Positions 3,087-58,726 of a stretch of DNA of 64,000 nt are shown here, piece by piece. The number at the start of each line of letters is the position of its first letter. Within the stretch, counting starts at the first letter, position 1. The notes below the pieces were generated by a model. That model saw only the letters and a list, made by a program, of their open reading frames with translations, did not search any database and was not told where the DNA came from. The stretch is from a virus: positions 6,059 to 70,058 of IMG/VR virus record IMGVR_UViG_3300033145_001324; one strand, 5' to 3'. The position numbers were made by a program, and so were the translations under genes.

Positions 3087-3719
3087 TTAATCGGAAGGTT
3101 TATCGGGAACAGAATGCCACTTGTCTATAAGCCATTTTACATAAAATTCAGAACAACCTAAAATTTCCGCTACATCGTCCTTAGTAATTATTCCTTCTTT
3201 AAACAACTTCGCTAAACGCTCATTATAAAGCACTTGGTCTTTAAAGTAAGGATGTTTCTGTGCTTCCCAAATATCAGTTTTTATTTTTAGTAATATCATT
3301 TTAGAACAATGAGTGCATTTTATAGTGCGTGATGCCTGATTGGATTCACGCCACTTAGCGAATTTCTTTTTTAGTGTTTGAATATATATAAAAGGGTCAT
3401 CTCCTGTTTTATCTTCTCTAATAAGACCCAATTCCTTCTTTAAAATTATTATTTGTGCCAAGTTCTCATTTAACGCTTTAAGAATAGCATTGGGGATTTT
3501 TGGTGTATCAGAAGTAGTTATACTATTTGAAAATTTTTCGATAGATTTACGATACCTTAACTGAAGTGCCTCGAAAAAAACCAGTTCTGATAAAAGCTGC
3601 GAATCACTAATATTATCAATGTGATATTTTTGGCGATAATCCTGAAAACGATTACTCGCCCAACGCTTTTCTCCTTTGGACGATAATCCAGAGTTGTCAA
3701 AATCGTTATTTTTTGGCAT
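3087..3719 (-). CDS. Hypothetical protein, candidate terminase small subunit
   Basis: Upstream of terL, 210 aa, helical core, CTHC ribbon and C-terminal HTH-like ITKDDVAEILGCSE; assignment by position only. Confidence 0.35.
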   Translation of the reverse strand: MPKNNDFDNSGLSSKGEKRWASNRFQDYRQKYHIDNISDSQLLSELVFFEALQLRYRKSIEKFSNSITTSDTPKIPNAILKALNENLAQIIILKKELGLIREDKTGDDPFIYIQTLKKKFAKWRESNQASRTIKCTHCSKMILLKIKTDIWEAQKHPYFKDQVLYNERLAKLFKEGIITKDDVAEILGCSEFYVKWLIDKWHSVPDKPSD

Positions 3720-4764
3720 TTTTGTGTTCTTTCGTTTTTACATTATGACAAGGTTTGCATAAAGTTTGTCCGTTGCTTACTTCCCAAAATGGTTTATATT
3801 TCTTAGCAAGTTTTACTAAACTTTTTTTATCGTCTATTGGCGAAAATTGGTCGTATAGTTTTAGAAAATCGTTATAAATATAAGAGAAAGATTCTTTATG
3901 ATGAGATTCTATTTTTTTACCTTTATAATTGCATTCTTGGCAGGTGAAAATATCTCGTTTAAAAACTTCAAATCTCCATTGTTTGTATTCAGGTAAATGT
4001 CTAATCACCTCATATAAAGAACTGATTCCCCCTTGCCAATTCCAATGGTTTTTTCCTTTACTAAAAACGTGCCAGCAGTTTTTGCATCGTTTAGCGAGCG
4101 ATGGCGGTATTTGTTTTCCGCAATCTATACAATTATTTTTGTTTGCGTATTTACCGTGTTTAATCTTTGCACAAACAGAACATCTTTTTGCATAGCAGTT
4201 TGTTAATTCTTTATCACAATCTATACATTTATTATTAGGTTTTCGATTACGTTGATTTGCACAAAAAACACATCTTCCTTTACCATAAAAAGCGGTTGTA
4301 TAATGTATTTCTTCCCCACAAACTTTACAATAATATTTTTTATGTCTTTTTTTAATTTCTTCTTTATGAGTTTGGTAATAAATTTTAGCGTTTTCTGCTT
4401 TATGTTGTTTATTCAACTCCGCCCATTTTTTGCTTCTTAATTTTATTTCTTCTCTGTGAAGCAAATAATAAATTCTTTGTTGTTTTGTAACTTTCTCTTT
4501 AATCTTTTCTTTATTTGTTTCTAAGTAAATTATTCGTTCTTGTTTGCGAACCTGGCTGCAAAATTTTGCTTTTTTTCTACGTTCTTGTTTGTGGGAATCT
4601 CTGTATTTTCTGCTATAAATTGAAATCTTTTCTTTATGAAGGTGGCGGTATTCTTTTTGACAGGTTGTGCACCAATGCTGTAATCTATCTTGAGAGGAAT
4701 TGTCTTTACCAAATTTCGTAATCTGCTTATTTACCTTACATTTTGTGCAAATCTTCGTTACCAT
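3706..4764 (-). CDS. HNH homing endonuclease with multiple CxxC Zn-ribbons
   Basis: KICTKC N-terminus, repeated CIDC/CxxC units, WQGG..EYKQWR..VFKRD.FTCQEC..HH...NGQTLCKPCH. Confidence 0.85.
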   Translation of the reverse strand: MVTKICTKCKVNKQITKFGKDNSSQDRLQHWCTTCQKEYRHLHKEKISIYSRKYRDSHKQERRKKAKFCSQVRKQERIIYLETNKEKIKEKVTKQQRIYYLLHREEIKLRSKKWAELNKQHKAENAKIYYQTHKEEIKKRHKKYYCKVCGEEIHYTTAFYGKGRCVFCANQRNRKPNNKCIDCDKELTNCYAKRCSVCAKIKHGKYANKNNCIDCGKQIPPSLAKRCKNCWHVFSKGKNHWNWQGGISSLYEVIRHLPEYKQWRFEVFKRDIFTCQECNYKGKKIESHHKESFSYIYNDFLKLYDQFSPIDDKKSLVKLAKKYKPFWEVSNGQTLCKPCHNVKTKEHKNAKK

Positions 4765-4826: not shown

Positions 4827-4858
4827 AAAAAAATGGACAGGTTGTGGATAACCTGCCC
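4827..4858 (-). terminator. Intrinsic terminator (loop region contains TTATCCACA)
   Basis: Minus strand GGGCAGGTT-ATCCAC-AACCTGTCC followed by A and a T7 run; 9-bp stem with one G-U. Confidence 0.7.
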
Positions 4859-4868
4859 TTGGGGATGA

Positions 4869-4916
4869 CTAATAAATAGATACTCCTAAATTAATATATA
4901 AAAAGCTCATAGACAT
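4869..4916 (-). CDS. Possible 15-aa leader peptide MSMSFLYINLGVSIY
   Basis: Between promoter 4947-4995 and terminator; purine-rich GGAAAGGG upstream; very short so may be untranslated. Confidence 0.3.
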   Translation of the reverse strand: MSMSFLYINLGVSIY

Positions 4917-4946
4917 AAAAATACACCCTTTCCTATCTCTATCTAT

Positions 4947-4995
4947 ATTATACCATATATTAGGGGGGTGAGTCAAGTAAATAATCGATTTATTT
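4947..4995 (-). promoter_or_regulatory. Class A promoter
   Basis: AAATCGATTATTTAC-TTGACT-18 bp-(TGG)TATAAT. Confidence 0.8.
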
Positions 4996-5017
4996 TAAAG
5001 GTGGTCTCTATCATCAC

Positions 5018-5206
5018 TTACCTCCGTAACGGAAAAGCGTTATGATAGATACTGTGTTTTTCTATTAAATCGCTAAAGTCTTTTTTCGCATAAGCCATTG
5101 ATTGCCCTAATATCTCTCGTTGTTTATTTTCTGCTACCATTCCGTTCATTTCTATTTCTGCTTGCAACATATTCATTTGGAAATATAATAGGTCTTTATC
5201 ACTCAC
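5018..5206 (-). CDS. Small hypothetical protein bounded by junction repeats
   Basis: GTG start and RBS supplied by the upstream repeat; stop lies within the downstream repeat. Confidence 0.7.
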   Translation of the reverse strand: MSDKDLLYFQMNMLQAEIEMNGMVAENKQREILGQSMAYAKKDFSDLIEKHSIYHNAFPLRR

Positions 5207-5790
5207 TTACCTCCGTATAATTTATGGATTATTACTGAAGATAATTCTTTTGCTTTTTGTTCCAGCCATAAATCTCTTTCATCATCAAACTTTATACCCT
5301 CTAACTTCGCTACATGTCTTTCAAGTTTTTTAGTGAAGGTAATAATCTTACTACTCATAATTTCTTTTGCCAGTTCCTCAACCCCTATCCTCGTCCGAGA
5401 GAGTTCGGCTTCTGCTTTAACCCTTTTTAATCGTTCATCTTCTAACATTTTAGAATATAGGGAAAAGTTATCTTTTAACTTATCATATTCATCCTTCAAC
5501 TCATCCCTCTCTTTGATGAGTTTAGCCACTACTGGAGTGCAGAGGTCTATGGTTTTATTAAGTATATAATCTGTTTTACAAGAATTTCTATATATATCAT
5601 TGCTTGTGCATTGTTCTGGCTTGGTATATCTCTTCTCAGGCAACACTCCCTCAGCTTTCTCTACTGCCTCAAGGGTTGAGATGGCAGAACGGATAGCACT
5701 TAACTTACTCTTTCCTGGTTCTGTCTTTTGTATTATATCTTGTGCGTAGTATTTTTCTATCTCTTTTAATATCTCTATGTCTTTATTCAT
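5203..5790 (-). CDS. Mosaic coiled-coil hypothetical protein (paralog of 6499..6855)
   Basis: Likely start MNKDIEILKEIEKYYAQD at 5790; shares four sequence blocks with 6499..6855. Confidence 0.75.
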   Translation of the reverse strand: MNKDIEILKEIEKYYAQDIIQKTEPGKSKLSAIRSAISTLEAVEKAEGVLPEKRYTKPEQCTSNDIYRNSCKTDYILNKTIDLCTPVVAKLIKERDELKDEYDKLKDNFSLYSKMLEDERLKRVKAEAELSRTRIGVEELAKEIMSSKIITFTKKLERHVAKLEGIKFDDERDLWLEQKAKELSSVIIHKLYGGK

Positions 5791-5951
5791 TTGATTTCTC
5801 CCAAAGTATCTTCTATGACTCTCCTCATATTTGATTTGAACCACTCAAAGTCAAATACTCGTTCACGAATATGTGAATACTCTTCCTTTATAGACTCTTC
5901 TGCAAACCTCATAGCCTTGCTCAATAAATGTTCTTTTATTTTATTATCCAT
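5787..5951 (-). CDS. Small hypothetical protein (54 aa)
   Basis: Manual translation MDNKIKEHLLSKAMRF...TLGEIK*; GGGGGAG upstream; ATGA overlap with next gene. Confidence 0.6.
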   Translation of the reverse strand: MDNKIKEHLLSKAMRFAEESIKEEYSHIRERVFDFEWFKSNMRRVIEDTLGEIK

Positions 5952-6182
5952 CTACTCCCCCAATCTTTTTATTAATGTTGACCATATTTTTTCTATACCT
6001 TTTTGATATGCTTGTATTTGAGAATTGTTATAAGATTTTGGAAAATCATACATACACATATTAGCTATATCATTTATCTCTTTTTTAAATAGGTCTATGA
6101 GGGCGATGGTGGCTTGGTCAACTGTAACCCCTGGATGTCTTTTAAAAGCCCACTCTACTATCTCTCTAATCTCTTTTTTCAT
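5952..6182 (-). CDS. Hypothetical protein
   Basis: First gene after class A promoter 6244-6292. Confidence 0.6.
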   Translation of the reverse strand: MKKEIREIVEWAFKRHPGVTVDQATIALIDLFKKEINDIANMCMYDFPKSYNNSQIQAYQKGIEKIWSTLIKRLGE

Positions 6183-6243
6183 AATCTAATCCCTTTCTCT
6201 CTAATCTCTTATTTTATTAGTCAATAATTAACCCTTTTTATTC

Positions 6244-6292
6244 ATTATACTATAAGAGGATGGGCTCGGTCAAGTAAATAATAGATTTATTT
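6244..6292 (-). promoter_or_regulatory. Class A promoter
   Basis: AAATCTATTATTTAC-TTGACC-18 bp-TATAAT. Confidence 0.8.
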
Positions 6293-6334
6293 TTAACTAC
6301 TTTAAAAAAGATTTAATCACTTACCTCCGTATCT

Positions 6335-6499
6335 TTATGCCTTCGGGCAAAACATACCCTCATTAAAAATACACTTTACATTATGAGTTTTGCAAATAAA
6401 GGTTTCTCCTTCATCTGTTGTTACGATATTGCATTCTTCAATATAAACCTTCTCATCTGTTGAATACCAAAGATTATTTTGTAATTCTTTTATCTTCAT
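6335..6499 (-). CDS. Small Cys-containing hypothetical protein (54 aa) bounded by junction repeats
   Basis: Manual translation MKIKELQNNLWYSTDE...GMFCPKA*. Confidence 0.6.
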   Translation of the reverse strand: MKIKELQNNLWYSTDEKVYIEECNIVTTDEGETFICKTHNVKCIFNEGMFCPKA

Positions 6500-6855
6500 C
6501 ACTTACCCCCGTATAGTTTATGGATTGCTTGTCTGGCTATCTCTTTCATTTTCGGCACTAAAGTAGGCACGTCCTTAACAAAGGGGACTGTCATTTTTTC
6601 TATTTTCTCTAATGCCTCAACCCCTATCCCCTTTATCCGAGAGAGTTCGGCTCTTAATTTTACAATTTCATTTGAATCTGCTTTATGACAAGCCCTTAAT
6701 AAATCCCTCTCCTTGATTAACTTCTCCTGTGCCTCAAGGGTTGAGATGGCAGAACGGATAGCATTTAACTTACTCTTTCCTGTTTCTGTCTTTTGTATTA
6801 TATCTTGTGCGTAGTATTTTTCTATCTCCTTCAAAACCTCTATATTATTCATCAC
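6499..6855 (-). CDS. Mosaic hypothetical protein (paralog of 5203..5790)
   Basis: LKEIEKYYAQDIIQKTE.GKSKL.AIRSAISTLEA, LIKERD, AELSR, IHKLYGGK shared with paralog. Confidence 0.75.
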   Translation of the reverse strand: MMNNIEVLKEIEKYYAQDIIQKTETGKSKLNAIRSAISTLEAQEKLIKERDLLRACHKADSNEIVKLRAELSRIKGIGVEALEKIEKMTVPFVKDVPTLVPKMKEIARQAIHKLYGGK

Positions 6856-6885
6856 TCCACCTCCTTGTGTAAATTTCTTGATACC

Positions 6886-7191
6886 TCATTCTGTTTGTTT
6901 GAAATAAGAATTTTGCAACAGGCAGAGGGCTTGCTCTTTTACAAGTTCAAACTCTGCTACATAAGCCTTTAATTTTAGCTTAAAAGACTCAGTCAAATCT
7001 CTGCATTGATAGGTTATGTTTCCTTTTATTTCAATAGTATAAAGTTCTTTTATATTCTTTTTTCTTAACCATTCAACTAAATCGTTCTCTAAAATCTCCT
7101 TTTCGCATTTCAACGCATTTATTATTTTATCTTCTTTTAATTCCCCTAAATAAGTTGTGCTATTAATTGTTATTACTTTTAAGTTTTCCAT
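6886..7191 (-). CDS. Hypothetical protein
   Basis: ORF track; AGGAG RBS upstream. Confidence 0.6.
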   Translation of the reverse strand: MENLKVITINSTTYLGELKEDKIINALKCEKEILENDLVEWLRKKNIKELYTIEIKGNITYQCRDLTESFKLKLKAYVAEFELVKEQALCLLQNSYFKQTE

Positions 7192-7780
7192 TTGTTTTCT
7201 CCTTTTTTAAATAAGGGCACCATTTTGGTGCTTCTATTTGTGTATGCCACGGGAAAGAGCCGATAGTTCTTTCCCTTTTTAAACATTTTGGATGTAATTC
7301 CAGCATTCCTACCACGCAATCATAATATTGACATCCTTTACAATAATAAACTTTTTTACTGATGATAGGTTTCCTCTCAGGCAAACTATCTAAGAACAGC
7401 TTAGTTATGGCTTTGAGTTTACTTTTAACATACCTATTTGCTTGGTTCTCATTTAGAATCTTATGGTTGTAAGCCGTTTGATATATTTCTACTATCAGTT
7501 TCCTTAATTCAGCTTGTTTGGTTGTTAGTGTTTTTTGGTAATTTTTTAGTGTTATTATTGTATGTATGGTTTGTTCTTTATATGGTGCCATTCGCCATTC
7601 TTCTGCTTCTAAGGCATCTGCATAATTTTCTACCGCTTTATTTATTGTTCTACCCATACGAACATTTATATTGCAAATCTGTGCTACCCTACCAAACTCT
7701 ACTGCCACATATTCCTCAAAATCATTAAGATATATAGTTACACCTTCTGGGAGTCTTTTATCTGTAAAAGTTTTAGTCAT
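7163..7780 (-). CDS. Hypothetical protein with C-terminal Cys cluster
   Basis: Start reassigned to MTKTFTD in the junction repeat; YCKGCQY...C...PKWCPY tail. Confidence 0.6.
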   Translation of the reverse strand: MTKTFTDKRLPEGVTIYLNDFEEYVAVEFGRVAQICNINVRMGRTINKAVENYADALEAEEWRMAPYKEQTIHTIITLKNYQKTLTTKQAELRKLIVEIYQTAYNHKILNENQANRYVKSKLKAITKLFLDSLPERKPIISKKVYYCKGCQYYDCVVGMLELHPKCLKRERTIGSFPWHTQIEAPKWCPYLKKEKTNGKLKSNNN

Positions 7781-8237
7781 CACTCCACCTCTCTCCATTC
7801 CAAGTCTTTTGATATTTCTCTTTCATTACAAAAGCAAGCCAGAGTTGTTCCATTGAATGAAATTGAGTAACATAAGCTTCTTGCTTTGCTATTGCTTCAA
7901 ATTCTTTCTTGTGAGGCATAACTCCAGAACCTCTTTTTGGAAATACAAAGAGATGAAAACTATCTAATCTTTCGTGGTCCGCACAAGTTCTAACTTCTTC
8001 TCCTATTATTTTAATCATCTCCTGCAACTGGTCTTGTCGAGGGAGCCAAATTTTAGATGAACCATAACTCCTCATAAATCTGAGATGTTTTAAATATGTT
8101 GTTGTTTTTTCATCAAATCCTACTCTAACATGCAATTGAGATAGCGATACTATAAAATCACCTAATTCTTTTTTATGTTCTTTTTGGATTTCTACTGCCA
8201 TTTCACACATCTTTATGTTTTCTTTTGAAGTATCCAT
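7773..8237 (-). CDS. Conserved phage hypothetical protein
   Basis: IKMCE.A.EIQ, IWLPRQDQLQEM, SMEQLWLAFVMKEKY.K.W motifs typical of an uncharacterised phage family. Confidence 0.65.
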   Translation of the reverse strand: MDTSKENIKMCEMAVEIQKEHKKELGDFIVSLSQLHVRVGFDEKTTTYLKHLRFMRSYGSSKIWLPRQDQLQEMIKIIGEEVRTCADHERLDSFHLFVFPKRGSGVMPHKKEFEAIAKQEAYVTQFHSMEQLWLAFVMKEKYQKTWNGERWSDD

Positions 8238-8238
8238 T

Positions 8239-8385
8239 TTATTTTCCTTTTATACAATCTTCACATTTAAAAATACCATTATTAGACTTGTCGATAAAAC
8301 TTAAAACCCAAGGAAGATATTTATTAAATTTTTTACAAATAGGGTTATCCTTTTTATCATATTTTAATCATTTTATTATTTTCAT
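8239..8385 (-). pseudogene. Small Cys-rich gene with in-frame TGA at codon 6
   Basis: AAGGAG RBS then MKIIK*LKYDKKDNPICKKF...KCEDCIKGK*. Confidence 0.5.
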
Positions 8386-8406
8386 AATTCACTCCTTTTT
8401 ATTTTT

Positions 8407-8451
8407 ATTATATCATACTCCATAGAGCTCAGTCAAGTAAATAATCGATTT
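8407..8451 (-). promoter_or_regulatory. Class A promoter
   Basis: AAATCGATTATTTAC-TTGACT-18 bp-(TGA)TATAAT. Confidence 0.8.
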
Positions 8452-9830
8452 CCTTAAAATAAATAATATAGACACTCTGTCCAGATTATTGTCCAGATAC
8501 CAACATCATTTTCCGAACCACAAGCAATGGTTCGCAAATACTATATACTTTTTGCGACAAAAGAGACTGCATTTTCTACATATAATTGTATGAATTCATA
8601 CATATAGTTGTATATATTTAGCATTATAGGAATTTTATTTGATTATATAATGATAATTTTGTTATAAATGACATAACTTATTATAAATAAAGGAGTTACT
8701 ATTTGATTGTTATTTCCAAACGAAAATACACAGAAATACTAACTTGTTGAGAATAAAAGAGTTATATCAATTTTATTTACCAGCGATAATAAATATTATA
8801 TATTCTTCATAGATAATCCTAAAATCCTATATATTGAACATTAACTGCTAATAAATGTGATATTTTCACATAAATCCTTACTTAAAACTTATAATATGAT
8901 ATATCATATTTGATACTTAAAGCCTAAAAAGAGACCTAACATCTCATAAATGATAGCTTAAATAGGGACTTTTAAATTTTTCAACACCTAATCAACACTT
9001 AATCAACACCTTATTTTTGCCAAAACAGACCACCCCTATACCACCTACTTACCACTTCACAATGGTTACCGCACGACACCTATCCATCCTTGGCTACGCC
9101 ACGACGTATCCCAATATCGCTTATGTAACCCTTTTGTAACCAGGAAAAAGCGTAATACCTCCGTTTTATGTAACTTTTTACGTAACTTCTTTATAGTAAA
9201 CACTTTATAGCCAAATATATACCGATAGGGTATAAAATCGCACAAACCTCTATTTTTACGTTAATATTTACCCGAACGGTAACGAAATATACCCTTTCGG
9301 GTATGAACGAACGAAAGTCGTTGGAGCTCGATTAGAGTCTCCAGAAACGATACGTAAGCGGTTCGGAACGGTAGCCAGAGGCTCATTAGAGCCTACTGGC
9401 AATGCCTTTTAAGGCATTATTTGGGTTTTATGTGGATTTGTATGGTTCTTGGTCGTTTCGTGTTATTACGTGCGTTTTAACTTTATTTTAGGTTGTTTTT
9501 CGGTTTTTAATGCGATGAAACGGGTCGAAACGTGGGTTTAAGGCGTTTTAAATGGGTATAGTGGGGGTGTAAATCGGTCAAAATAGGTGTTTTGCTAAAA
9601 TAGACCCGCCCCAGTTATTGACGTAAAGCTATACTCTGTATAGGTTGACGTCTGCAATTACTTATAATGTAATGGCAAGGGTTGAGTTTGGGCTCTGATA
9701 TTGACATTAAATAAGATTTGTTTTTTCTGCATAACCTGATTAATCGATTATAACGTTATACGTTTCTTTTAATACTTCTTTATTGTTTCTTTTGTTTAGG
9801 CATTATTTTAATCTTTTTTTGTTTAGGGTA
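8452..9830. other. Non-coding divergence hub; candidate genome end/packaging site or origin
   Basis: No ORF >60 aa; palindromes, tandem 11-mers, hairpin cluster, C/A-to-G/T strand flip; transcription diverges from it. Confidence 0.6.
8982..9010 (+). repeat. Tandem 11-bp repeat CAACAC(C/T)TAAT (~2.6 copies)
   Basis: caacacctaat caacacttaat caacacc. Confidence 0.8.
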
Positions 9831-9858
9831 TTGACTTTATTTGTTTGTGGTGTATACT
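9831..9858 (+). promoter_or_regulatory. Class B (early) promoter
   Basis: TTGACT-16 bp-TATACT, followed by GGGAGG RBS and first rightward gene. Confidence 0.75.
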
Positions 9859-10083
9859 TATGGTAGAAAAGGGAGGGCGGAAAAATGGAAAATGCTAATA
9901 GGTGTTGGTTTTGCGGATTAGATGACAACTGTATTTATATAACCTATAAAAGATGTGGCGGAACTTGGCAGGGAGAATATGTTTGCGAAGAGTGCATAAC
10001 TTCACTTAAAAAAGACGGTGCAATTATCAATCGCAGTTTATAACATAGTGGAAACTGTTTCGAAGAAGAGGGAGTTTAAGACC

Positions 10084-18641: not shown

Positions 18642-18668
18642 TTAATGGAAAGAAATAGTGTATACTTG
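18642..18668 (+). promoter_or_regulatory. Class B-variant promoter, near-duplicated at ~19770-19800
   Basis: GAAAGAAATAGTGTATACTT shared by both sites; weak -35. Confidence 0.5.
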
Positions 18669-19292: not shown

Positions 19293-19826
19293 TGAATTTC
19301 CATATTGACAATAATTATAGAACAGTAATAAGACTTATTTTTAAATTATATCCGCAAATACATCAAGAATTGGTGCAAGATTTACACGATTGGTTAGACG
19401 GAGAATATGATTTTCCTAAGACTAAAGAATTAAAATCTTTAATTTTGGATATATCAAAAGGATAATAAAATGCGATTATTAAAAAAATATAAAATTACTT
19501 ATATTAAAAAATTAAGAATTGGTGGAGCTAAAGTTTATAGGTGTGATTGCGGACAAAGATTTACTGTTCCTATTGATAAAGAAGAAGTTAAATGTCTATA
19601 TTGTGGACGAGAGGAGAGATAAAAAGATGAGAAATATATTATATTATCTTATATGTTTCATAGCAATTATATTAGGATTATTTATTATTTGGTTGATAGG
19701 GTGTGCATTTATTGAAGTATTGGAACGTATAAGTATAGGTTATATTTTGAGTGCGGAGTATAATCATTTGGTTTAGTTGAAAGAAATAGTGTATACTTAA
19801 AATGAAAGAACAAACAGGAGGATTTA

Positions 19827-22461: not shown

Positions 22462-23571
22462 ATGTTTTTAATTGTATGGTTATTTATATTTATAGGAATT
22501 CCTACTGCAATTGTATTGGGAATAATTAAAACTTTTAAATTCGTTACTGCTCCTTTATGTAATGAGGAAATAGATATAGAAGAACTTGAAGAAGGAGAAG
22601 AAGGTAAAGATGAGGCTTTAAAGGTTATTATTAAAGATAACAATATAGATACTTCTCGTATAGTAGAATATAATGGAGAGGAAGTAGCGAGCTTTGAGTT
22701 TCGTCCTCAAACGTGGAAACAGTTCATAGCTCAAGATGAAGCAAAGGAAAGAGTTAAAACTATAATCAAAAAAGCAGAGCGTGGAATACGTAGCCATCTT
22801 ATTTTATCAGCAATTAAAGGTCATGGCAAAACTACTTTTATAGAATTATTGGCAAAAGATATGGACGCTCATTTAATCAAGAGAATAGGAAAACAGATTG
22901 ATGAGGATAATCTTGTTGACATTATTAACGAAATTAATACAAGCGAAAGTAAGCACGTGATTTTCTTTATAGATGAAATAGATAGTATGGATTGGAAAGT
23001 TATTAAGGTATTAAATCCTATTATAGAGCAATTTGAAATTGATGGAAAAAGAATTAAACCTTTTACCTTTGCCTGTGCCACTATTAATAAACATATATTG
23101 GTAAAGCAAAATCCTGATACACTTGATAGAATTCCGCACCATATACAATTTAAAAGATATACTTCTGAAGATATTAGCAGAATAATTACACAGTATAAAA
23201 ATCAATTATATGGGGAGGAAATAATTTCAATAGATATATTAAATTCTATATCTAAAAATTGTAAATTTAACCCTCGAACAGCGATTGCGTTATTAGAAGA
23301 TTATGTAGTGGAAAAAAATATTCAAAAAGTATTAAGCAATTGTAACATTATCAAAAACGGATTAAACAGTATAGATGTAAGCATTTTGAAGGTCTTAAAC
23401 GAAAGCAAAAGAGCTATGGGAGCAAATGCACTTAGTATGAGGATTGGACTCGGTCAGAGCCAGTATATGAGCGAATACGAGCCATTTCTGGTGGAGTTTG
23501 GTTTTATAGCAAGGACTCCAAGCAGGGTGATTACAGAAAAAGGAACGAAATTTTTGGAGGAATTAAAATGA
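22462..23571 (+). CDS. ruvB: RuvB-like AAA+ ATPase with N-terminal transmembrane segment
   Basis: RPQTWKQFIAQ, GHGKTT, FFIDEID, FTFACAT, LDR, NPRTA, EPFLVEFGFIARTP; hydrophobic first ~22 aa. Confidence 0.8.
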   Translation: MFLIVWLFIFIGIPTAIVLGIIKTFKFVTAPLCNEEIDIEELEEGEEGKDEALKVIIKDNNIDTSRIVEYNGEEVASFEFRPQTWKQFIAQDEAKERVKTIIKKAERGIRSHLILSAIKGHGKTTFIELLAKDMDAHLIKRIGKQIDEDNLVDIINEINTSESKHVIFFIDEIDSMDWKVIKVLNPIIEQFEIDGKRIKPFTFACATINKHILVKQNPDTLDRIPHHIQFKRYTSEDISRIITQYKNQLYGEEIISIDILNSISKNCKFNPRTAIALLEDYVVEKNIQKVLSNCNIIKNGLNSIDVSILKVLNESKRAMGANALSMRIGLGQSQYMSEYEPFLVEFGFIARTPSRVITEKGTKFLEELK

Positions 23572-23776
23572 AAATAAAAGGAAAGATTATAAAAACACCT
23601 GTTGGGGAATATCAATCACCGCTTAATCCACATTTCAAAGAAATATTATCAAATTGTAACACCGTAGAAGACTTATTTAATATCGTAGAATATCAAGGAT
23701 TTATAGACCCTGACGCTTTTAATGAACTTATAGTAAGGGGATTATGTTCACAATATAAAGAATGGAAAAATAAAAA

Positions 23777-24250
23777 ATGAAAAAGAAAATTCCTTTAAAA
23801 TTTAATAATTACAGTAAAGCTGATAAAATAACTATTTCTAAAATAGGTAAGATAGTAAAAAAAGACTGCATACTTGACGCAAGTGTTGTCCAGTTATGCG
23901 ATTATTATTATGGTAAATATACTATTGAATTAACAAAAAAACAGAAACGAGCCATTTTACAATTAGCAGGAATTAAACATAAACAAAATAAAAAAGAGGC
24001 TGGAGAATGGGCAAAATGTGGAATATTTTATTTAGCTTATGAACAATTAACAAGAAAAAACAAAGCAAAAAAATTAGTAAAAAACAGCGAGAATTGGCAT
24101 TATGAAGGAGATATAAATAAGGTAATGGAATGTGCAGGGGAAATAGTTGCAAATGCGTTTGAGAAAGATAGAGAAGAAAATCAAATAATAAACCATTTAC
24201 GAAATTATTGTAAGGAGATATTAGATGGCTATAATAGACTTATTGATTAA
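23777..24250 (+). CDS. Hypothetical protein
   Basis: ORF track; overlapping stop/start operon structure. Confidence 0.55.
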   Translation: MKKKIPLKFNNYSKADKITISKIGKIVKKDCILDASVVQLCDYYYGKYTIELTKKQKRAILQLAGIKHKQNKKEAGEWAKCGIFYLAYEQLTRKNKAKKLVKNSENWHYEGDINKVMECAGEIVANAFEKDREENQIINHLRNYCKEILDGYNRLID

Positions 24251-25043
24251 ATTTAAAGAGAGTTTAATATTAGATGGGCTTGCGAAAAAAACAATCAGAG
24301 CCTATATATCTTGTATTAATACTCTATCAAATAATATAAATTTTGATGAGATAAATCAAGAAAAAGTTAATCAATTCTTTCTTAATTTAGAAGCTCCTGA
24401 TAATACTGTTAATCAATATAAAAAGGCTCTTATTAAATGGATAAAAGTTTTTGAATTAGATATACATGTTCCTAAGTTTAAACAAGCAGAGCATAAAATA
24501 CCTGAATATTTTAACGAAGATTATTTTCTTGATGACATTATACCTGCAATAGATATATTATTTCAGGACGAGATAAAAGTCAGATGTTTATTTTATTTAA
24601 TGTTTTATACTGGATTAAGAGTGGGAGAAATTGCCAGTTTAAAGAAAAAAGATTTTGATTTAAAAAATAAAAGAATAAACATTCAGAAAAGAAAAGCAAA
24701 AAATCCTATTGTAGTATTTTATCCTCAACAAATGTCAGACCTTATAGAATTACATTTTAACAATACTGCTGGAAATGAAGATGTATTTAATATTAAAGAG
24801 GAAGCTATTAGTTATTATTGTAAAGTATTAAGCGAGAATTTAAATACACATATTACTCCTCATACTTTCAGGCATAGTTTTAGCATTACTTATCTAAAAA
24901 AAGGCGGGAATTCTAAAAATTTACAAGGATTACTTGGACACAAATCAAGAGTTTCTACGTCTATATATGAACAGATGAGCGACGATGATAGGGAAAAGGA
25001 ATTTCGGAAAGTGATGAAAATCAAAAGAAAACCATTGGGGTGA
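24225..25043 (+). CDS. XerC/D-like tyrosine recombinase
   Basis: TGLRVGE, PHTFRHSF, LLGH and ST..Y catalytic motifs; no arm-binding N-terminal domain. Confidence 0.9.
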   Translation: MAIIDLLIKFKESLILDGLAKKTIRAYISCINTLSNNINFDEINQEKVNQFFLNLEAPDNTVNQYKKALIKWIKVFELDIHVPKFKQAEHKIPEYFNEDYFLDDIIPAIDILFQDEIKVRCLFYLMFYTGLRVGEIASLKKKDFDLKNKRINIQKRKAKNPIVVFYPQQMSDLIELHFNNTAGNEDVFNIKEEAISYYCKVLSENLNTHITPHTFRHSFSITYLKKGGNSKNLQGLLGHKSRVSTSIYEQMSDDDREKEFRKVMKIKRKPLG

Positions 25044-25957: not shown

Positions 25958-26437
25958 ATGAATAAAATAGATAAAGCTCTTAATATAGTATATAATAATT
26001 TACCTTATAAGTATCATATTCCTTTTAAAATTTATAAAACTCCGAAAAAACTTTTACAAGCAGAAGCAAAGGAGGAAGGAAAAAGTTATCAAACGATATA
26101 TAAATTTTATACTCAATATTTTAATAACCCACCTATTAGCAAGTATATAAAAACTAAATATTATGAGCCTTCTGAAATAATAAAAACATCTATCAAAGAA
26201 AATAAATTAACTGCTTTAGATATATCAGGACTTGGGAGTTTTCCTATAAAATTAGTTGAGTCGCATTTATTAGAATTAAAAAAAATTGGTGATATTATTT
26301 TTATGTTGCTACATGAAATAGGTCATCAAGTTTTGGTAAGTGGATATAATTATGATGAAAGAGCTTGCGATTTATTTGCTATAAGATGGATAAAGAAATT
26401 CGTAAATAAAGGTGTAATTAAAAAATATTGGGAGTAA
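25958..26437 (+). CDS. HExxH metallopeptidase-like (IrrE/ImmA-like) protein
   Basis: LLHEIGH ... ERACDLFA. Confidence 0.55.
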   Translation: MNKIDKALNIVYNNLPYKYHIPFKIYKTPKKLLQAEAKEEGKSYQTIYKFYTQYFNNPPISKYIKTKYYEPSEIIKTSIKENKLTALDISGLGSFPIKLVESHLLELKKIGDIIFMLLHEIGHQVLVSGYNYDERACDLFAIRWIKKFVNKGVIKKYWE

Positions 26438-26442
26438 AAATA

Positions 26443-26817
26443 ATGTTGCTTTTAAACTATATAATTCCTAAGAAAAAAACTTTATCCAAAACTATTAGAA
26501 ATAGAGGATTTAATAATTGGAAATTTAAAGTTAAGAGAAAAGATAATTTTACTTGTCAATCATGTGGGAAAAGAAAAAGGATTGAAGCTCATCATATAAA
26601 AGGATTCGGAATAATATTTAAAGAATTTTTAAAGAAATATAAGCAATTTTCACCTAAAAAAGATAGAAACATTTTACTTTATTTAGCAAGAGAATATAAA
26701 CCTTTTTCAGACGTAAATAATGGTAAAACTTTATGCACGGATTGTCATGAAATAATAGAAGAACATAAAGAAGAAATGCTTCTGCCACGACAATTTAAAA
26801 AGGAGATGATGATATGA
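26443..26817 (+). CDS. HNH endonuclease (paralog of C-terminus of 3706..4764)
   Basis: DNFTCQSC..HH..QFSP..YKPF..NNGKTLCTDCH. Confidence 0.8.
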   Translation: MLLLNYIIPKKKTLSKTIRNRGFNNWKFKVKRKDNFTCQSCGKRKRIEAHHIKGFGIIFKEFLKKYKQFSPKKDRNILLYLAREYKPFSDVNNGKTLCTDCHEIIEEHKEEMLLPRQFKKEMMI

Positions 26818-28041: not shown

Positions 28042-28755
28042 ATGAAACCAAGATGTATCACTTGTGGGAAGAAAATATGGCAGGGGTCAAAACGATGCAA
28101 GTCTTGTGAAAATATAAGAAGACATAGACTTGGAATTGCAAGCAAAGGGAAATATATAGATGGGAGAACTTTAAAAGATTATCATTGTAAAGACTGTGGA
28201 AATCGAATCAGTGATTATAGACATAAGAGATGTAAAAAATGCTCTGCTATGTTTATTAACAAAGATATAATAAGAAAAGATAAATTAATCTATTACTGTA
28301 AAAATTGTAATGGTATTATTGATTATCAATCTGCTTTATATGGACAGGGTAGATGTAAATCTTGCGAAATGAAACATAGATGGCAAGATACAGGATATGC
28401 TATGAGATGTATTAAAAAAAGAAACGAAACCATGAAAATAAAACCAAATTATCCAGAAAAAATATTAGAAAGTTTATTGAACTTATCTTTAAAAAAAGAA
28501 TATAAATATGTAGGAAATGGGAAATTATTTATAAACAGATTCAATCCAGATTTTGTGAATAAAAAAAATAATAAAATAATTGAAATGTATGGTGATTATT
28601 GGCATAATAAACCGAGCTGGAAGAAGAGAGACAAACGTAGGTTGAAAGTTTATAAAGAACATAATTATGAAACTTTAATAATTTGGCAACATGAACTTGA
28701 ATATCCTGAGAAAGTAATTGCTAAAATAATGGAATTTAATTATAATAGGAGATAA
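28042..28755 (+). CDS. Zn-ribbon repeat + Vsr-like (DUF559-type) endonuclease
   Basis: Three CxxC..CxxC units; PNYPE, FNPDF, IIEMYGDYWH, IIWQHE. Confidence 0.8.
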   Translation: MKPRCITCGKKIWQGSKRCKSCENIRRHRLGIASKGKYIDGRTLKDYHCKDCGNRISDYRHKRCKKCSAMFINKDIIRKDKLIYYCKNCNGIIDYQSALYGQGRCKSCEMKHRWQDTGYAMRCIKKRNETMKIKPNYPEKILESLLNLSLKKEYKYVGNGKLFINRFNPDFVNKKNNKIIEMYGDYWHNKPSWKKRDKRRLKVYKEHNYETLIIWQHELEYPEKVIAKIMEFNYNRR

Positions 28756-32580: not shown

Positions 32581-32790
32581 ATGAAAATTATTGGTAAGAA
32601 AATTCTTTTATCAGAAAAAGATAATCAAAATATTGAAAATTTCGATAAAGCTTTACGCAAATTTAAAAAGGCTATTCGTAATTTGGGTATATTGAAAGAA
32701 TTAAAAGACAGAAGAAGTTTCGAGAAGCCAAGTGTAAAGAAACGAAAGAAAAGATTAGAGAGTCAACGTAATAATAAGAGGAAGAAATGA
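32581..32790 (+). CDS. rpsU: Ribosomal protein bS21
   Basis: FDKALRKFKK...GILKELKDRRSFEKPSVKKRKK. Confidence 0.85.
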   Translation: MKIIGKKILLSEKDNQNIENFDKALRKFKKAIRNLGILKELKDRRSFEKPSVKKRKKRLESQRNNKRKK

Positions 32791-34637
32791 TAAACGAATC
32801 CGAAGGAAAAATAGTTGTTCTTGATTGGGCTGTATTTATGTATATGGCTATTTTCGGCACAAGACGACCTGGAAGCATGTCTTCAACTTATGTTGGGCTA
32901 AGTATGATTCTTTCTTGCCTACGAAAAATAGGTATCGAGCCACAGGATACGGTTTATCTTGCAGTGGATTTTCTTAAAAGTTGGAGAAAACAATATGCTG
33001 AAGAATATAAAGCCGATAGAAAGGCAAAGTTGGACGCTCATACAGATATTAATTGGGATAAAGAATATAAAGCTTTTAATGAACTGTTAAATAACTTGAA
33101 CCGAGGCACGGATTGGATTGTCGTGAAAGGTGAGCATTGTTTGGCTGGTAATACTTTTATTAAAGTAAAAAACAGAGATAAATATATAAATCAACTTAAA
33201 ATTAATGATAAAGTGCTTACTTATAATTTTAAAAAGAAAATATTCGAATATAATAAAATTTTAAAAATTTATAGACATAAAACAAATGAATACTTGGAAT
33301 TGGAGTTTTTTCAAAACAAAACAAAATTAATTATAACTCCTGAACATAAAGTTTATACAAATAATGGTTGGCGTAAAGCAAAGAATTTAAAAATTAAAGA
33401 TGTTATATACACTTATCAAGATTATCAATTACTTTTAAACCAAAAAAATCAATTTATGTTAGGATATTTAACTGGATTAGTAGAAGGAGATGGCTGGATA
33501 CATAGACAAAAGCGAGCGTGTGCCATTTCTATGTGCGATTTAGAACCTGTTAAATATGCACAATTTATAATAAAAAAATTAACGGGTAAAGAATATAAAA
33601 TTGATGATAGAGAAGCTCGAAAAGTTCACTGGAAAAGAACAAAAACTATAACAATTTACAATAAAAGTTTTCTACAGCTACTTTCAGATTGTATGAAAAA
33701 CCATGGTTCAAATAAAGAGTTTATGAAAGGATTTTTGAGTGCATTTTATGATGCGGAAGGAGCATTAGGGAAAACAAAAGAATATGCTTACGGATTAATT
33801 CGTATATCTAATACAGACAAAAAGTTAATATTATATTGTCAAAAGATTTTAGATGTTTTTAAAATAGAGTATAAAGTTTATAAATTCAAAAATTACAATG
33901 GAAATAAAAGACATAAAGACATATATAGAATAGATATAAATAAACAAAAATATGTTAGGGAATTTTTTGAGAAATTTTATCCTCAAATAAAGAGGAAAAC
34001 CCCAGAAACTTTGAAAAATGGAATTCAAATCAGAAAAATCAATTTTATTAAAAATAATAATGAAATAAAAACTTATAATATAGAAACAAAAAATGAAAAT
34101 TATTTTGCTAATGGTATGCTGGTGCATAACTGCGAAGCAGACGACTTGGCATCACATATAGTCCGTCATAACAGAAATAAAGAGGTTGTTCTTGTCACTA
34201 TCGACGGAGATTGGCAACAAATGTGGCAATTCGGAGATAATGTAAAAATATTTTCTCCTAAAACAAAGCCCCGTCGATACAAAGTCAAGCCTAAAAATTA
34301 TAACTTCGCCCTTGAGCTTGCGAAGAAAATAAAATGTGAGAGGTCTGATAATTTAATTTCTGAGATTAAAACTGAGGAAGATTATGAAATTAGAAAGATG
34401 CTTGTTGACCTTACTACGCTTCCAATATTTATTGAAAAGCAAATAGATGATATTTTTGCTAATTTAAAAGAGAAAGAAAATATAGATATAAATTGTATTC
34501 CTTATGACAGTTTAAGAGAAAAGATAGAAACTTTATATAATGATAAAGAATATATTGTTACGTATAAATGGTCAGAGGCATTTGAAGAACGCAAAACTAA
34601 ACGAGTAGCAAATAAAAGAAAGAAGGTAAAAAAATGA
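32787..34637 (+). CDS. 5'-3' exonuclease (T5 D15/T4 RNase H-like) with intein
   Basis: VVLD, SWRK...YKADR, EADD, TIDGDWQQ. Confidence 0.85.
   Translation: MINESEGKIVVLDWAVFMYMAIFGTRRPGSMSSTYVGLSMILSCLRKIGIEPQDTVYLAVDFLKSWRKQYAEEYKADRKAKLDAHTDINWDKEYKAFNELLNNLNRGTDWIVVKGEHCLAGNTFIKVKNRDKYINQLKINDKVLTYNFKKKIFEYNKILKIYRHKTNEYLELEFFQNKTKLIITPEHKVYTNNGWRKAKNLKIKDVIYTYQDYQLLLNQKNQFMLGYLTGLVEGDGWIHRQKRACAISMCDLEPVKYAQFIIKKLTGKEYKIDDREARKVHWKRTKTITIYNKSFLQLLSDCMKNHGSNKEFMKGFLSAFYDAEGALGKTKEYAYGLIRISNTDKKLILYCQKILDVFKIEYKVYKFKNYNGNKRHKDIYRIDINKQKYVREFFEKFYPQIKRKTPETLKNGIQIRKINFIKNNNEIKTYNIETKNENYFANGMLVHNCEADDLASHIVRHNRNKEVVLVTIDGDWQQMWQFGDNVKIFSPKTKPRRYKVKPKNYNFALELAKKIKCERSDNLISEIKTEEDYEIRKMLVDLTTLPIFIEKQIDDIFANLKEKENIDINCIPYDSLREKIETLYNDKEYIVTYKWSEAFEERKTKRVANKRKKVKK
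33138..34130 (+). mobile_element. Intein with LAGLIDADG endonuclease (331 aa)
   Basis: CLAGNT start, TPEH block B, LVEGDG and FYDAEG, NYFANGMLVHN|C end. Confidence 0.9.
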
Positions 34638-39305: not shown

Positions 39306-39933
39306 TAGGAAGAGATTGAACAGGATTAGGGATGAATTTGGTAGAGGGTTTGAATATCTTAGTCAAATAAAAAGAGGAGTTGTTATTTTTGGCTCTGCAA
39401 GAACTAAGAAAGACAGCCCACAATACAAATCTGCTTACGACTTATCTTATCAATTAGCCAAAAAGAAATTTTCTATTATTACTGGAGCAGGTAAAGGGCT
39501 TATGGAAGCTGCTAATAAAGGTGCGTATGATGCCAATGGAATTTCGGTTGGGTTAAATATTGAATTACCTAAATTTCAAGATAAGAATGATTATATTAAT
39601 CGTTATATTTGTTTCAAACATTTTTATACAAGAAAAGTTATGTTCGCTAAATATTCTTTTGCTTCTATTTCTTGTCCTGGTGGATATGGCACAGCAGATG
39701 AAATATTTGACCAATTAGCGATTTTACAAAACGGAAAAATTCCTCCAAGACCTTTTATATTATTTGGAACGAAATTTTATAAAGGATTGATAGACTGGCT
39801 TAAATATTTAAAAGAGGATAAAAAATTAAGCCAAAGAGATTTTGATTTGTTTAAAGTAACCGATAGTATTGATGAAGTTGTTAGTATTATAGAACGTGAA
39901 TATAATGGCAGGAAAAAGAGGTTTATGATATAA
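39292..39933 (+). CDS. LOG-family nucleotide monophosphate phosphoribohydrolase
   Basis: FGSAR, TGAG.GLMEAANKGA, FYTRKVMF, PGGYGTADE. Confidence 0.9.
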   Translation: MRKSDRKRLNRIRDEFGRGFEYLSQIKRGVVIFGSARTKKDSPQYKSAYDLSYQLAKKKFSIITGAGKGLMEAANKGAYDANGISVGLNIELPKFQDKNDYINRYICFKHFYTRKVMFAKYSFASISCPGGYGTADEIFDQLAILQNGKIPPRPFILFGTKFYKGLIDWLKYLKEDKKLSQRDFDLFKVTDSIDEVVSIIEREYNGRKKRFMI

Positions 39934-41144
39934 TGAAGAAAAAAATTCCTATTATAATAGCTTTAATCTGTATGGGGCAATATAGTGTGCAAGGTATCTC
40001 TTCTTTGCCAGGTCAGTGTATATATTATTTAACCCGTGAAGCTTGGGGATTATCGGCTACTATGTTAGGGTTGATAAGTTGGGTGGTCGGAATTGCTTGG
40101 AGTATTAAAATTATTTGGGGATTTTTTGTAGATAACGTTTCTATTAAAGGCAAAAGAACTACTTATTATTTAATAGGAAGTTATTTATTATTGCTATTAA
40201 GTTACGCATATATTGTTATCTTTGGTTTAAATTTAATAACTTTGATTATAACAGGAGTAATAATTAATACTTGTATAGCATTTGCAGATGTAACAGTAGA
40301 CCGAGAAATGGTTATTACTGAACAAAAATTGAAGTTAAAAGGTCGTTTACAGTCTCTACAATGGTCCAGTTTAGGCATAGCAGGGCTTGTAGTAGCACTA
40401 TTAGGAGCATATATAGCCAAATACCTACCAGAACACCTAAATTATAGAGTAGCTTATGCTTTGGCAGGGGTGATTCCTTTTGCTATGTTAATTTATATAT
40501 CTACTAAATTTAAAGAACGTAAATTAAGAATGACAAAAAAACATAACTTTTTAAAAATTTTTAAGACGAATATTATAAAAATAAAGAATAAACGTCTATT
40601 AATAGGGTTATTATTTGTAGCGTGTTTACAGTTTTGTCCTTCTTTTGGCACAGCATTAATGATTCGCTGTAGAGAAACCTTGGGCGTAGACAAATTATTC
40701 TTAGGTTATTTAGGTGCAATGGGAACTGTTTTAGGAGTAATAGGATATTTTATTTATTATAAATGGGCTTATAAATTTCCTATGAAAAAATTATTATATT
40801 TTATGGTATTGTTTTCGGCTATCACTAATTTATTTTATCTTTACTTACCTAATCAGTGGATATTGCTTCTTTATAATTTAGCGTTTGGAGCGTTTGGAGG
40901 TATTACATTTATGACCTTGTTAGCGTTCTTTGTTCGGATTATACCTAAAGGTAGCGAGGCTTTCTTTTATGCATTGGTTACATCAGTATCAAATTTTTGT
41001 GCAAGAGGTGGAAATTTTTTCGGAGGATTAATATTTGATAATTTTGGTTATTATGTTACTGTAATAGTTTCCACAGTAGCTACATTGTTTTGTTTATTAT
41101 TGATACCTTATTTGAAAATAGGAGACAATTTATGCAATTCGTAG
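39933..41144 (+). CDS. MFS transporter, BT1 (folate/biopterin)-like
   Basis: ~12 TM; W.IK..WG..VD...I.G.R..YY, A.ADV.VD...V, G.LQS..W, P.G.EA..YA...S..N. Confidence 0.75.
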   Translation: MKKKIPIIIALICMGQYSVQGISSLPGQCIYYLTREAWGLSATMLGLISWVVGIAWSIKIIWGFFVDNVSIKGKRTTYYLIGSYLLLLLSYAYIVIFGLNLITLIITGVIINTCIAFADVTVDREMVITEQKLKLKGRLQSLQWSSLGIAGLVVALLGAYIAKYLPEHLNYRVAYALAGVIPFAMLIYISTKFKERKLRMTKKHNFLKIFKTNIIKIKNKRLLIGLLFVACLQFCPSFGTALMIRCRETLGVDKLFLGYLGAMGTVLGVIGYFIYYKWAYKFPMKKLLYFMVLFSAITNLFYLYLPNQWILLLYNLAFGAFGGITFMTLLAFFVRIIPKGSEAFFYALVTSVSNFCARGGNFFGGLIFDNFGYYVTVIVSTVATLFCLLLIPYLKIGDNLCNS

Positions 41145-45972: not shown

Positions 45973-46639
45973 GGATGTAATTAAAATGTCAATAAAAATT
46001 TATAAAAATAAATGTAAATACCTCAATACTTTAACTGAAGAATTTTTAAGAAATTCTTATATATATAATAAAAACTCCACTAGAACTATAGCATTGAGTC
46101 TTAATTGTGATAAAAATATTATCCTTTATTGGTTGAAAAAATATAATATTAAAAGAAGAACTATAAGTGAAGCAAATAAAGGGAGAGTCTCTTTTCGTAA
46201 AGGCAAACATTTATCTAAATCACATGGAAATAACATACGACTCGCTTTAATAGGAAGAAAATTAACTAGAATTCATAGAATGAAAATTAGTGAAAACCAT
46301 GCAAATGTATCAGGTGTAAATAATGGATTTTATGGTAAAGAACACACACAAGCCCAAAGAAAAAAGTGGTCTTTGATTCATGGTGGTAATGGCAAGCCTT
46401 ATGATTATGATGAATATAATATAACGTTTTATAGAGCTCGTAAACAAATTTTATTAAGAGATAAAGATACCTGTCAAAAATGTTTTTCTAATGGGCTATG
46501 TGTTCATCATATAGATTATAATAAAAATAACAACAAATTAACTAATTTAATTGCCTTGTGTTCCAAATGTCATGGATTAACCAATTTTGATAGAGATTAT
46601 TGGTATGCTTATTTTACTTATATAAGGGAGAACAAATAA
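45965..46639 (+). CDS. NUMOD3-HNH homing endonuclease
   Basis: RD..CQKC..VHHIDYNK.NN...NLIALC.KCH..N..RDYWYAY. Confidence 0.85.
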   Translation: MNKDVIKMSIKIYKNKCKYLNTLTEEFLRNSYIYNKNSTRTIALSLNCDKNIILYWLKKYNIKRRTISEANKGRVSFRKGKHLSKSHGNNIRLALIGRKLTRIHRMKISENHANVSGVNNGFYGKEHTQAQRKKWSLIHGGNGKPYDYDEYNITFYRARKQILLRDKDTCQKCFSNGLCVHHIDYNKNNNKLTNLIALCSKCHGLTNFDRDYWYAYFTYIRENK

Positions 46640-58719: not shown

Positions 58720-58726
58720 TAAAGAT

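Follow-up and report, generated by a model that had tools for sequence, protein, structure and literature searches.

Duplicated stop, ribosome-site and start junctions around accessory genes in a phage early region as possible footprints of gene insertion

The stretch of DNA analyzed here, referred to below as the window, comprises 64,000 nucleotides (nt) and corresponds to bases 6059–70058 of a single virus record of 70,058 nt (IMG/VR record IMGVR_UViG_3300033145_001324, denoted G000). Between window positions 5014 and 7791, six minus-strand copies of a 15-nt sequence stand at gene ends and gene starts, each copy combining one or more stop codons, a GGAGG-type ribosome binding site (RBS), and a start. 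The copies form pairs. Of the two copies in a pair, the upstream one forms the native coding 3′ terminus of a gene with homologs elsewhere; the downstream one is a non-coding duplicate, positioned past one or more genes that are missing in relatives and before what is plausibly the original follower. We assign a probability of about one half to the reading that these repeats record the insertion of genes into translationally coupled junctions and the duplication of a ~1.3-kb module, both through ordinary phage recombination. The early region in which they lie is promoter-delimited and hyperplastic, and no dedicated enzyme would be needed.

An earlier note on this DNA, made from the letters alone, had reported four copies of TACGGRGGTAAGTGA and two copies of a second 15-mer, GAGGTGGAGTGATGA, and the counts are confirmed. 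Exact matches to TACGGRGGTAAGTGA are found at 5014–5028, 5203–5217, 6317–6331 and 6499–6513, all on the minus strand, as compared to a mean of 0.11 in shuffled sequences (0 of 100 shuffles reach four copies). The two GAGGTGGAGTGATGA matches, at 6849–6863 and 7777–7791 of the minus strand, compare to a mean of 0.06 (0 of 100 shuffles reach two). No further TACGGRGGTAAGTGA copy is present in the record at up to two mismatches, and the six 15-mer copies, limited to 2.8 kb, occur nowhere else in its 70 kb. Two genes that end in the repeats are paralogs of each other, here called the short and the long paralog, and two small genes are called X1 and X2. In minus-strand order the six junctions, J1–J6, are as follows.

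7777..7791, minus strand: J1, GAGGTGGAGTGATGA; coding end of a 154-amino-acid (aa) gene (..ERWSDD*), and RBS and start of a 205-aa gene
6849..6863, minus strand: J2, an exact 15-nt copy of J1 in an intergenic spacer; RBS and start of the short paralog
6499..6513, minus strand: J3, TACGGGGGTAAGTGA; codes for YGGK* of the short paralog; RBS and start of X1
6317..6331, minus strand: J4, an orphan copy past X1, with only a 7-codon frame next
5203..5217, minus strand: J5, TACGGAGGTAAGTGA; codes for YGGK* of the long paralog; RBS and GTG start of X2
5014..5028, minus strand: J6, an orphan copy; X2 ends within it in another frame (LRR*), and only a 13-codon frame is next

Both 15-mers represent one junction motif, consisting of GGAGGT, then A or GG, then AGTGATGA. 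The strict form of this pattern has four sites, as compared to 0.01 in shuffles; a looser form recovers all six sites within 5014–7791, with three unrelated loose matches elsewhere, and AGTGATGA by itself has only one further occurrence in the genome beyond the six junctions. The second 15-mer had been described as a distinct repeat that brackets two other genes; it does flank the pair of genes encoding 205 and 101 aa, but it is not a separate motif, and its copy at 7777 is coding while that at 6849 is intergenic. The exact TACGGRGGTAAGTGA repeat extends over 15–17 nt and belongs to a 20-nt family at 85–100% identity, with the two paralog-end copies, J3 and J5, sitting in a 28-nt block of 93% identity. 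The commonest start context in this phage is A-rich (AAAGGAG..AAAATG), which renders the G-rich spacer of the junction atypical.

Strings spanning RBS and start are shared more widely between unrelated genes of this phage: among 142 gene starts, six pairs possess identical runs of at least 15 nt, as compared to 0.4 after column shuffling, and exact strings of 17–20 nt are seen, for example, at 10395/10581, 14254/26799, 27930/38662 and 6886/48939. This excess is compatible with frequent joints at start sites, and also with selection on start contexts. In IMG/VR, the 15-mer is found at 42 loci, in one copy each and mostly with an ATG within a few bases; only one of these loci (L060, from the fragment G005 discussed below) is related to the window. 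Chance, or convergence on a strong ribosome site by copies of separate descent, could account for a motif that is a near-consensus Shine-Dalgarno sequence, spacer and start, that recurs in nearly always unrelated phages, and that lies in a genome where shared RBS strings are common. For the window this is hardly credible, given the four and two copies observed where 0.11 and 0.06 are expected, the spacer that is atypical for the genome, and the confinement of all six copies to 2.8 kb.

Coding status separates the two members of each pair. J3 and J5 encode the HKLYGGK* tail of the two paralogs and, as the earlier note had it, also supply the RBS and the ATG or GTG start of the next small gene. 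The tail AIHKLYGGK* recurs in P0003, the sole other family member in a search of 5.8 billion proteins, and in a 56-aa protein of G005. For the 154-aa protein, the alignment with a 119-aa homolog from L019, a distant relative, reaches W151, a residue encoded within J1 (39% identity, E 3e-19). J2, J4 and J6 are non-coding or out of frame, and are followed by a paralog start or a promoter. With J1, J3 and J5 coding and J2, J4 and J6 not, each pair thus reads as a gene end, one or more inserted genes, a copy of the gene end, and the original downstream context. The earlier observations that each junction packs stop, RBS and start, and that this arrangement is duplicated around extra genes, hold at the level of sequence and open reading frames (ORFs), and the flanked genes are missing in relatives. 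The orphan copies had been said to follow the small genes directly, with no ORF behind them and a class-A promoter ahead; frames of 7 and 13 codons are indeed all that follows, while X2 does not precede its orphan but ends inside it. From repeat start to the start of the −35 hexamer, J4 is 44 nt from promoter P2, and J6 is 38 nt from promoter P3.

Taken together, a model for the origin of the junction pairs can be proposed. Accessory genes would have been inserted into tight gene junctions of a phage early operon, leaving the coupling junctions duplicated, with the downstream duplicate restoring the original context for its follower, be it the start of the short paralog or the next early promoter. 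As the three genes would stay expressed only if the ~15-nt junction were present on both sides, selection would preserve exactly such insertions. The source events would be ordinary illegitimate or short-homology recombination in a replicating lytic phage. One unit, comprising a paralog tail, a small gene, an orphan junction and a promoter, would later have been duplicated in tandem with a period of ~1.3 kb, and the small gene in the duplicated unit replaced or re-inserted, within a wider mosaic of conserved blocks and unrelated segments. We infer this mechanism and this order of events from the arrangement of the repeats. If the two copies of a pair recombined with each other, the flanked genes would be lost and working junctions would remain. 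The present repeats may retain a capacity for precise loss or exchange.

The region that contains the junctions runs, on the minus strand, from promoter P1 through the 154-aa gene, J1, the 205-aa and 101-aa genes, J2, the short paralog with J3, X1 and J4 to promoter P2, and from there through the 76-aa and 54-aa genes, the long paralog with J5, and X2 with J6 to promoter P3 and an HNH endonuclease gene. G004 denotes the one colinear relative.

8400..8459, minus strand: promoter P1, class A; opposite edge of the segment that is replaced in G004
7773..8237, minus strand: 154-aa gene, the first after P1; without family; homolog in the distant relative L019
6864..7776, minus strand: segment between J1 and J2, 913 nt, with the 205-aa gene (7163–7780, ATG in J1) and the 101-aa gene (6886–7191)
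6499..6852, minus strand: short paralog, 117 aa, ending in HKLYGGK*
6335..6499, minus strand: X1, 54 aa, Cys-containing, between J3 and J4; ATG start; no family; unrelated to X2
6237..6296, minus strand: promoter P2, class A; TTGACC, 18-nt spacer, TATAAT, conserved upstream AAATCTATTATTTAC
5787..6182, minus strand: two small genes after P2, of 76 aa (5952–6182) and 54 aa (5787–5951), neither with a family
5203..5790, minus strand: long paralog, 195 aa, ending in HKLYGGK*; mosaic with the short paralog
5018..5206, minus strand: X2, 62 aa, between J5 and J6; GTG start; helical as predicted by eye
4940..4999, minus strand: promoter P3, class A; homology to G004 begins exactly at its upstream edge (4999)

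None of the nine small proteins of the region reaches the Pfam threshold, and their sole PHROG match is a weak one, of the long paralog to phrog_774, a family of unknown function. X2 bears a weak similarity (0.92) to small viral hypothetical proteins in a protein atlas, and X1 has no usable match there. X1 and X2 are unrelated to each other (P=0.48 for DNA, P=0.995 for protein) and neither resembles the paralogs. The 205-aa and 101-aa genes have no homologs in G004 or the other loci retrieved, and the 205-aa gene has none in viral contigs.

The two halves of the region share a common layout. Paralog ends are spaced by 1296 nt, promoters by 1297 nt and orphans by 1303 nt, with tail-to-orphan distances of 182 and 189 nt in the two units; this near-constant spacing points to an old tandem duplication, for which equal landmark order and spacing would be expected. 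Homology throughout the units, which would be expected as well, is not found, and only blocks of 133, 33, 26, 28, 20 and 60 nt align. The long and short paralogs themselves share a 133-nt N-terminal block of 89% identity, followed by short conserved blocks amid unalignable stretches. The 15-mers thus make up two of some six conserved blocks in this mosaic, which extends through the coding sequence of the paralogs as well. Such a pattern agrees better with general recombination of diverged copies than with a process specific to cassettes.

Could tandem duplication of the paralog array alone explain the repeats? X1 and X2 would then be degenerate paralogs and the orphan 15-mers relic tails, with the 15-mer kept as both a conserved C-terminal peptide and a ribosome site, and no insertion or cassette dynamics would have occurred. 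The regular spacings and the mosaic paralogs are consistent with such a history. So is a CATAAA just upstream of J4 that recalls the His-Lys codons of the paralogs, one base out of register and suggestive only. The fragment G005, in which the tail junction is followed by the start of the short paralog, likewise hints at an ancestral head-to-tail array. An array alone leaves J1 and J2 unexplained, however: since J2 repeats codons of another gene, the 154-aa gene, this pair did not come from the paralog array. Moreover, homology upstream of the orphans beyond the 15–17 nt is not significant (local P=0.07 to 0.75; anchored extension P=0.15 to 1.0), and X1 and X2 lack similarity to each other or to the paralogs. 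We regard an array without insertions as possible but rather unlikely.

The promoters provide a second view of the orphan copies. P2 and P3 are sigma-70-like and match 11 of 12 consensus positions. Seven class-A promoters are present in the window and only two of them possess a 15-mer copy upstream, which rules out the 15-mer as part of a promoter cassette. No terminator-like site was found at or beside the 15-mers or just upstream of P1–P3, and no match was returned by Rfam and tRNA scans of the region. As no terminator-like site separates the operons, transcriptional read-through is plausible, and the orphans might then be functional RNA or translation signals in read-through transcripts, such as a multi-frame stop and a decoy ribosome site ahead of the next promoter, where translation would end and ribosomes would be freed or reloaded; this function would then be what keeps the copies conserved. 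Three observations agree with this notion: i) 15–17 nt are sharply conserved between flanks that are unrelated on both sides, ii) the motif holds TAA and TGA in two frames, of which X2 uses the TAA, and iii) the 15-mer stands at gene junctions of many unrelated phages, at the 42 loci mentioned above. It is opposed by the two-in-seven association with class-A promoters, by the lack of any copy at the orthologous promoters of G004, and by the lack of a shared fold among the four TACGGRGGTAAGTGA contexts (z-scores −0.67, −2.44, 0.15 and −0.64), and it appears very doubtful to us.

Several other features adjoin the promoters. A terminator-like hairpin (GGGCAGG..CCTGTCC and a T run) is present after P3 only, at 4835–4858 of the minus strand, ~90 nt downstream of the promoter and before the HNH gene; promoter, leader and hairpin are also found in G004 (L013, ~7258–7440), and the leader with its hairpin may be a short early RNA or an attenuator. 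Beyond P1, window positions 8460–9880 form ~1.4 kb without a convincing ORF between the minus-strand and plus-strand gene blocks; this stretch, partly kept in G004 (9302–9674, 70%) and without a tRNA or Rfam match, may be a divergent control region or an origin. On the plus strand, an exact 20-nt repeat, GAAAGAAATAGTGTATACTT, lies at 18648–18667 and 19779–19798, followed ~30–200 nt later by a repeated ACTAAGAAAAAGTTAG; they may be promoter or regulatory repeats of a second class, belonging to the early region of the plus strand.

To place the region among relatives we relied on G004 (69,856 nt), which was found by a promoter-core search. G000 and G004 share 57 colinear blocks at 66–88% identity, covering 31,863 of 70,058 nt. 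In G004, the 3,393-nt interval from P3 to P1 is replaced in its entirety by three unrelated genes on 1,073 nt. Of the seven class-A promoters, four are no more than 60 nt away from a block end, as compared to 1.16 expected (P=0.016). Apart from the two paralogs, none of the region's nine proteins has a homolog in G004; that of the paralogs is a 230-aa protein with a different tail that is encoded in another module. A 131-aa G004 protein was rejected as a member of the paralog family (hhalign probability 1.5%). Neither 15-mer has a copy in G004 at up to two mismatches. G004 does possess a 20-nt junction repeat of its own, GATAAGGAGTAAGTGATGAA, with the same core GTAAGTGATGA. Its two copies are 398 nt apart and flank a gene for 133 aa, the final codons of which (IRSK*) fall within the second copy.

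Other searches returned little. No match was found for 4900–8500 among GenBank phages by blastn, and no paralog proteins were found in viral contigs. The paralog alignment gave 413 pattern matches in metagenome contigs, none of which was confirmed. The IHKLYGGK* tail pattern was found in viral contigs only in G005, and one match in a genome contig was discarded as an out-of-frame chance match in an 11-codon frame. The 15-mer is present in none of three PolB relatives (61–70% aa identity), and the relatives of a 210-aa protein, at nine metagenome and three viral loci, are all too distant or too short except for G004.

Several of these results weigh against an origin of the repeats by gene insertion. 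The points where homology to G004 breaks, window 4999/5000 and 8393, coincide with the promoter repeats rather than with the 15-mers; the breakpoint at 4999 is 15 nt from J6. The G000–G004 comparison contains 24 clean indels of gene size, and the longest direct repeats near their ends measure only 6–11 nt, about what chance would give, so that long junction duplications are not the rule in this lineage. No relative among the retrieved loci shares the 15-mers with different gene content between them, or carries an empty site joined at a repeat. J3/J4 and J5/J6 are possibly one event copied by the tandem duplication, which would leave only two independent events here and one in G004. Independent insertions do not account for the core AGTGATGA shared by all pairs; this core suggests common descent from the leader of the paralog family, or selection for this type of junction. 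Lastly, the record is a metagenomic assembly, and assembly artefacts among the repeats are conceivable. The earlier note had allowed that breakpoints away from the repeats would favor an old tandem duplication with RBS conservation; in G004, the single informative relative, the breakpoints do lie away from the 15-mers, and the 1296–1303-nt spacing is duplication-like.

Two further differences between G000 and G004 concern endonuclease-type and polymerase genes. A DUF559-type endonuclease gene (2120–2635) lies in a clean 731-nt insertion at 2121–2853 of the minus strand, where G004 has 5 nt, and this insertion resembles a free-standing homing endonuclease. The PolB gene (51954–55217, plus strand) contains 966 nt at 53009–53976 that are missing in G004 (gap of 966 versus 3 nt); as the ORF is open across the extra stretch, an intein or an inserted domain is likely.

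The earlier note further proposed an integron-like plug-in cassette system, driven by short-homology recombination or possibly by an Xer-like recombinase. In the latter form, the 15-mer would be the recombination site of the phage tyrosine recombinase encoded at 24225–25043. Such an enzyme is present (PF00589, E 7e-23), direct repeats do flank gene-sized units, and unrelated genes do stand between equivalent repeats. No dyad symmetry or inverted repeat, however, was detected at any 15-mer copy or its flanks, and TACGGAGGTAAGTGA with its flanks shows no two inverted arms around a spacer, which discards an Xer/dif-type core site. The terminal inverted repeats of the three inserts score at chance level (P=0.45, 0.25 and 0.90), and the flanked proteins match no family, so that a transposon or insertion sequence with target-site duplication was likewise rejected. 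The genome has this one tyrosine recombinase, and all copies of the 15-mers sit 17 kb from it, on the other strand and within 2.8 kb; they accompany only two of seven promoters; the two repeat types differ in sequence; and the upstream copies are ordinary coding ends. G004, finally, keeps the recombinase (73–76% aa identity) and has no copy of either 15-mer. Site-specific cassette integration is, in our judgment, extremely unlikely, and neither the integron-like system nor the recombinase as its driver is supported. The recombinase gene is intact in the window (24225–25043, plus strand), while in G004 (reverse-complement 23138–24916) it is split between residues ~220 and ~217–270 by a ~967-nt insert, which could be an intron, an intein or a mobile-gene insertion.

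G005 is a 6,220-nt fragment of 43.4% GC whose proteins otherwise bear no similarity to those of the window. Over 45 nt, it matches the tail and junction of the short paralog at 91% identity. Its tail junction is followed by ATGAATAATAT, identical to the short paralog's own start, and ATGAATAAT opens only three of the 155 gene calls of the window, the short paralog included. The match may go back to paralogs once arrayed head to tail, or else the tail-junction segment may have spread horizontally; as a single case, it is a lead only. The latter possibility can be carried further. The junction GGAGGT(A|GG)AGTGATGA, together with ~30 nt of HKLYGGK tail, might pass as a portable linker between unrelated phages and serve as a site where recombination preferentially makes its joints. 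The 91% identity over 45 nt between genomes of 43% and 29% GC hints at this, as do the analogous 20-nt pair with the same core in G004 and the fact that the same tail junction precedes three different genes: X1, X2 and a G005 membrane protein. If the linker were real, small genes would be plugged in, swapped and lost precisely at coupling sites, as a translation-level counterpart of the promoter-early stem-loop (PeSL) promoter cassettes. We consider a portable linker improbable at present.

The genomic setting is that of a large lytic-type phage, as judged by a gene set that includes a family-B DNA polymerase, a clamp-loader-like ATPase, DNA and RNA ligases, a primase and an SbcD-like exonuclease. 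The window has a GC content of 28.8%, with genes on the minus strand below ~9,600 and the remaining genes on the plus strand. It also encodes an intein-containing protein, with LAGLIDADG and Hint domains in a 616-aa product (32787–34637), and several HNH-type or other endonuclease paralogs; besides the DUF559-type gene, endonuclease paralog groups lie at 3706–4764, at 26428–26817, at 28042–28755, and at 45986–46639 with 58703–59377 and 61208–61861. An MFS/BT1-family transporter of 403 aa (39933–41144, plus strand; PF03092, E 8e-20) is an unusual phage auxiliary gene.

How small early genes are gained and lost in packed phage operons is only partly understood, PeSLs and homing endonucleases being the documented vehicles. 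The locus described here offers three clean cases of a minimal translation junction duplicated around accessory genes. With the junction duplicated, a gene lacking its own promoter would be expressed immediately, and could later be removed precisely. If general, such duplication would provide a simple signature of recent gene gain in phage genomes, and insertion sites for engineered phages. One local example and one partial parallel in a relative give these implications modest weight.

Three known systems invite comparison. Integron cassettes are promoterless genes in one orientation, bounded by repeats and expressed from upstream signals, which IntI recombines at attC and attI. The genes between the junctions are likewise promoterless, share one orientation, and are bounded by repeats, and a gene at the site is expressed from upstream signals; an attC hairpin, an adjacent platform of IntI, attI and Pc, and an array-wide site are all absent here. 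The modular theory and the mosaicism of phage genomes are reportedly owed in their original form to Susskind and Botstein and to the Hendrix group. In such mosaics, new joints fall at gene boundaries, short conserved boundary sequences may target recombination, and selection keeps only the functional joints (PMC3974807). As compared to the boundary linkers described there, the present locus visibly carries its boundary sequence twice, once on either side of the inserted gene, and this sequence is itself a stop, RBS and start unit.

The PeSLs of T4-type phages are described by Arbiol et al. 2010 as short repeated regulatory sequences at gene boundaries in hyperplastic early regions, where they flank ORFans; recombination between flanking copies deletes the gene, or inserts one via a circle, and supplies expression signals (PMC2839356). 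PeSL cassettes are also the subject of Comeau et al. 2014 (PMC4122927). The 15-mers likewise are short boundary repeats that flank ORFans in the early region of a large lytic-type phage, and PeSLs too extend from an upstream stop codon to a downstream Shine-Dalgarno sequence and start (PMC2839356). The differences are as follows: mini-circles and alternative alleles were not observed here, and the 15-mers measure 15–20 nt rather than ~100 nt, are local (six in 2.8 kb), contain one coding copy per pair, and carry translation signals only, without the stem-loop and without the sigma-70-like promoter and its AT-rich upstream sequence. It is the seven class-A promoter repeats that possess such a promoter and upstream sequence, and what distinguishes the window from G004 is entire modules with these promoters at their borders, a further likeness to PeSL regions. 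On this comparison, the PeSL cassette of T4-type phages is the closest known analogue of the junction pairs.

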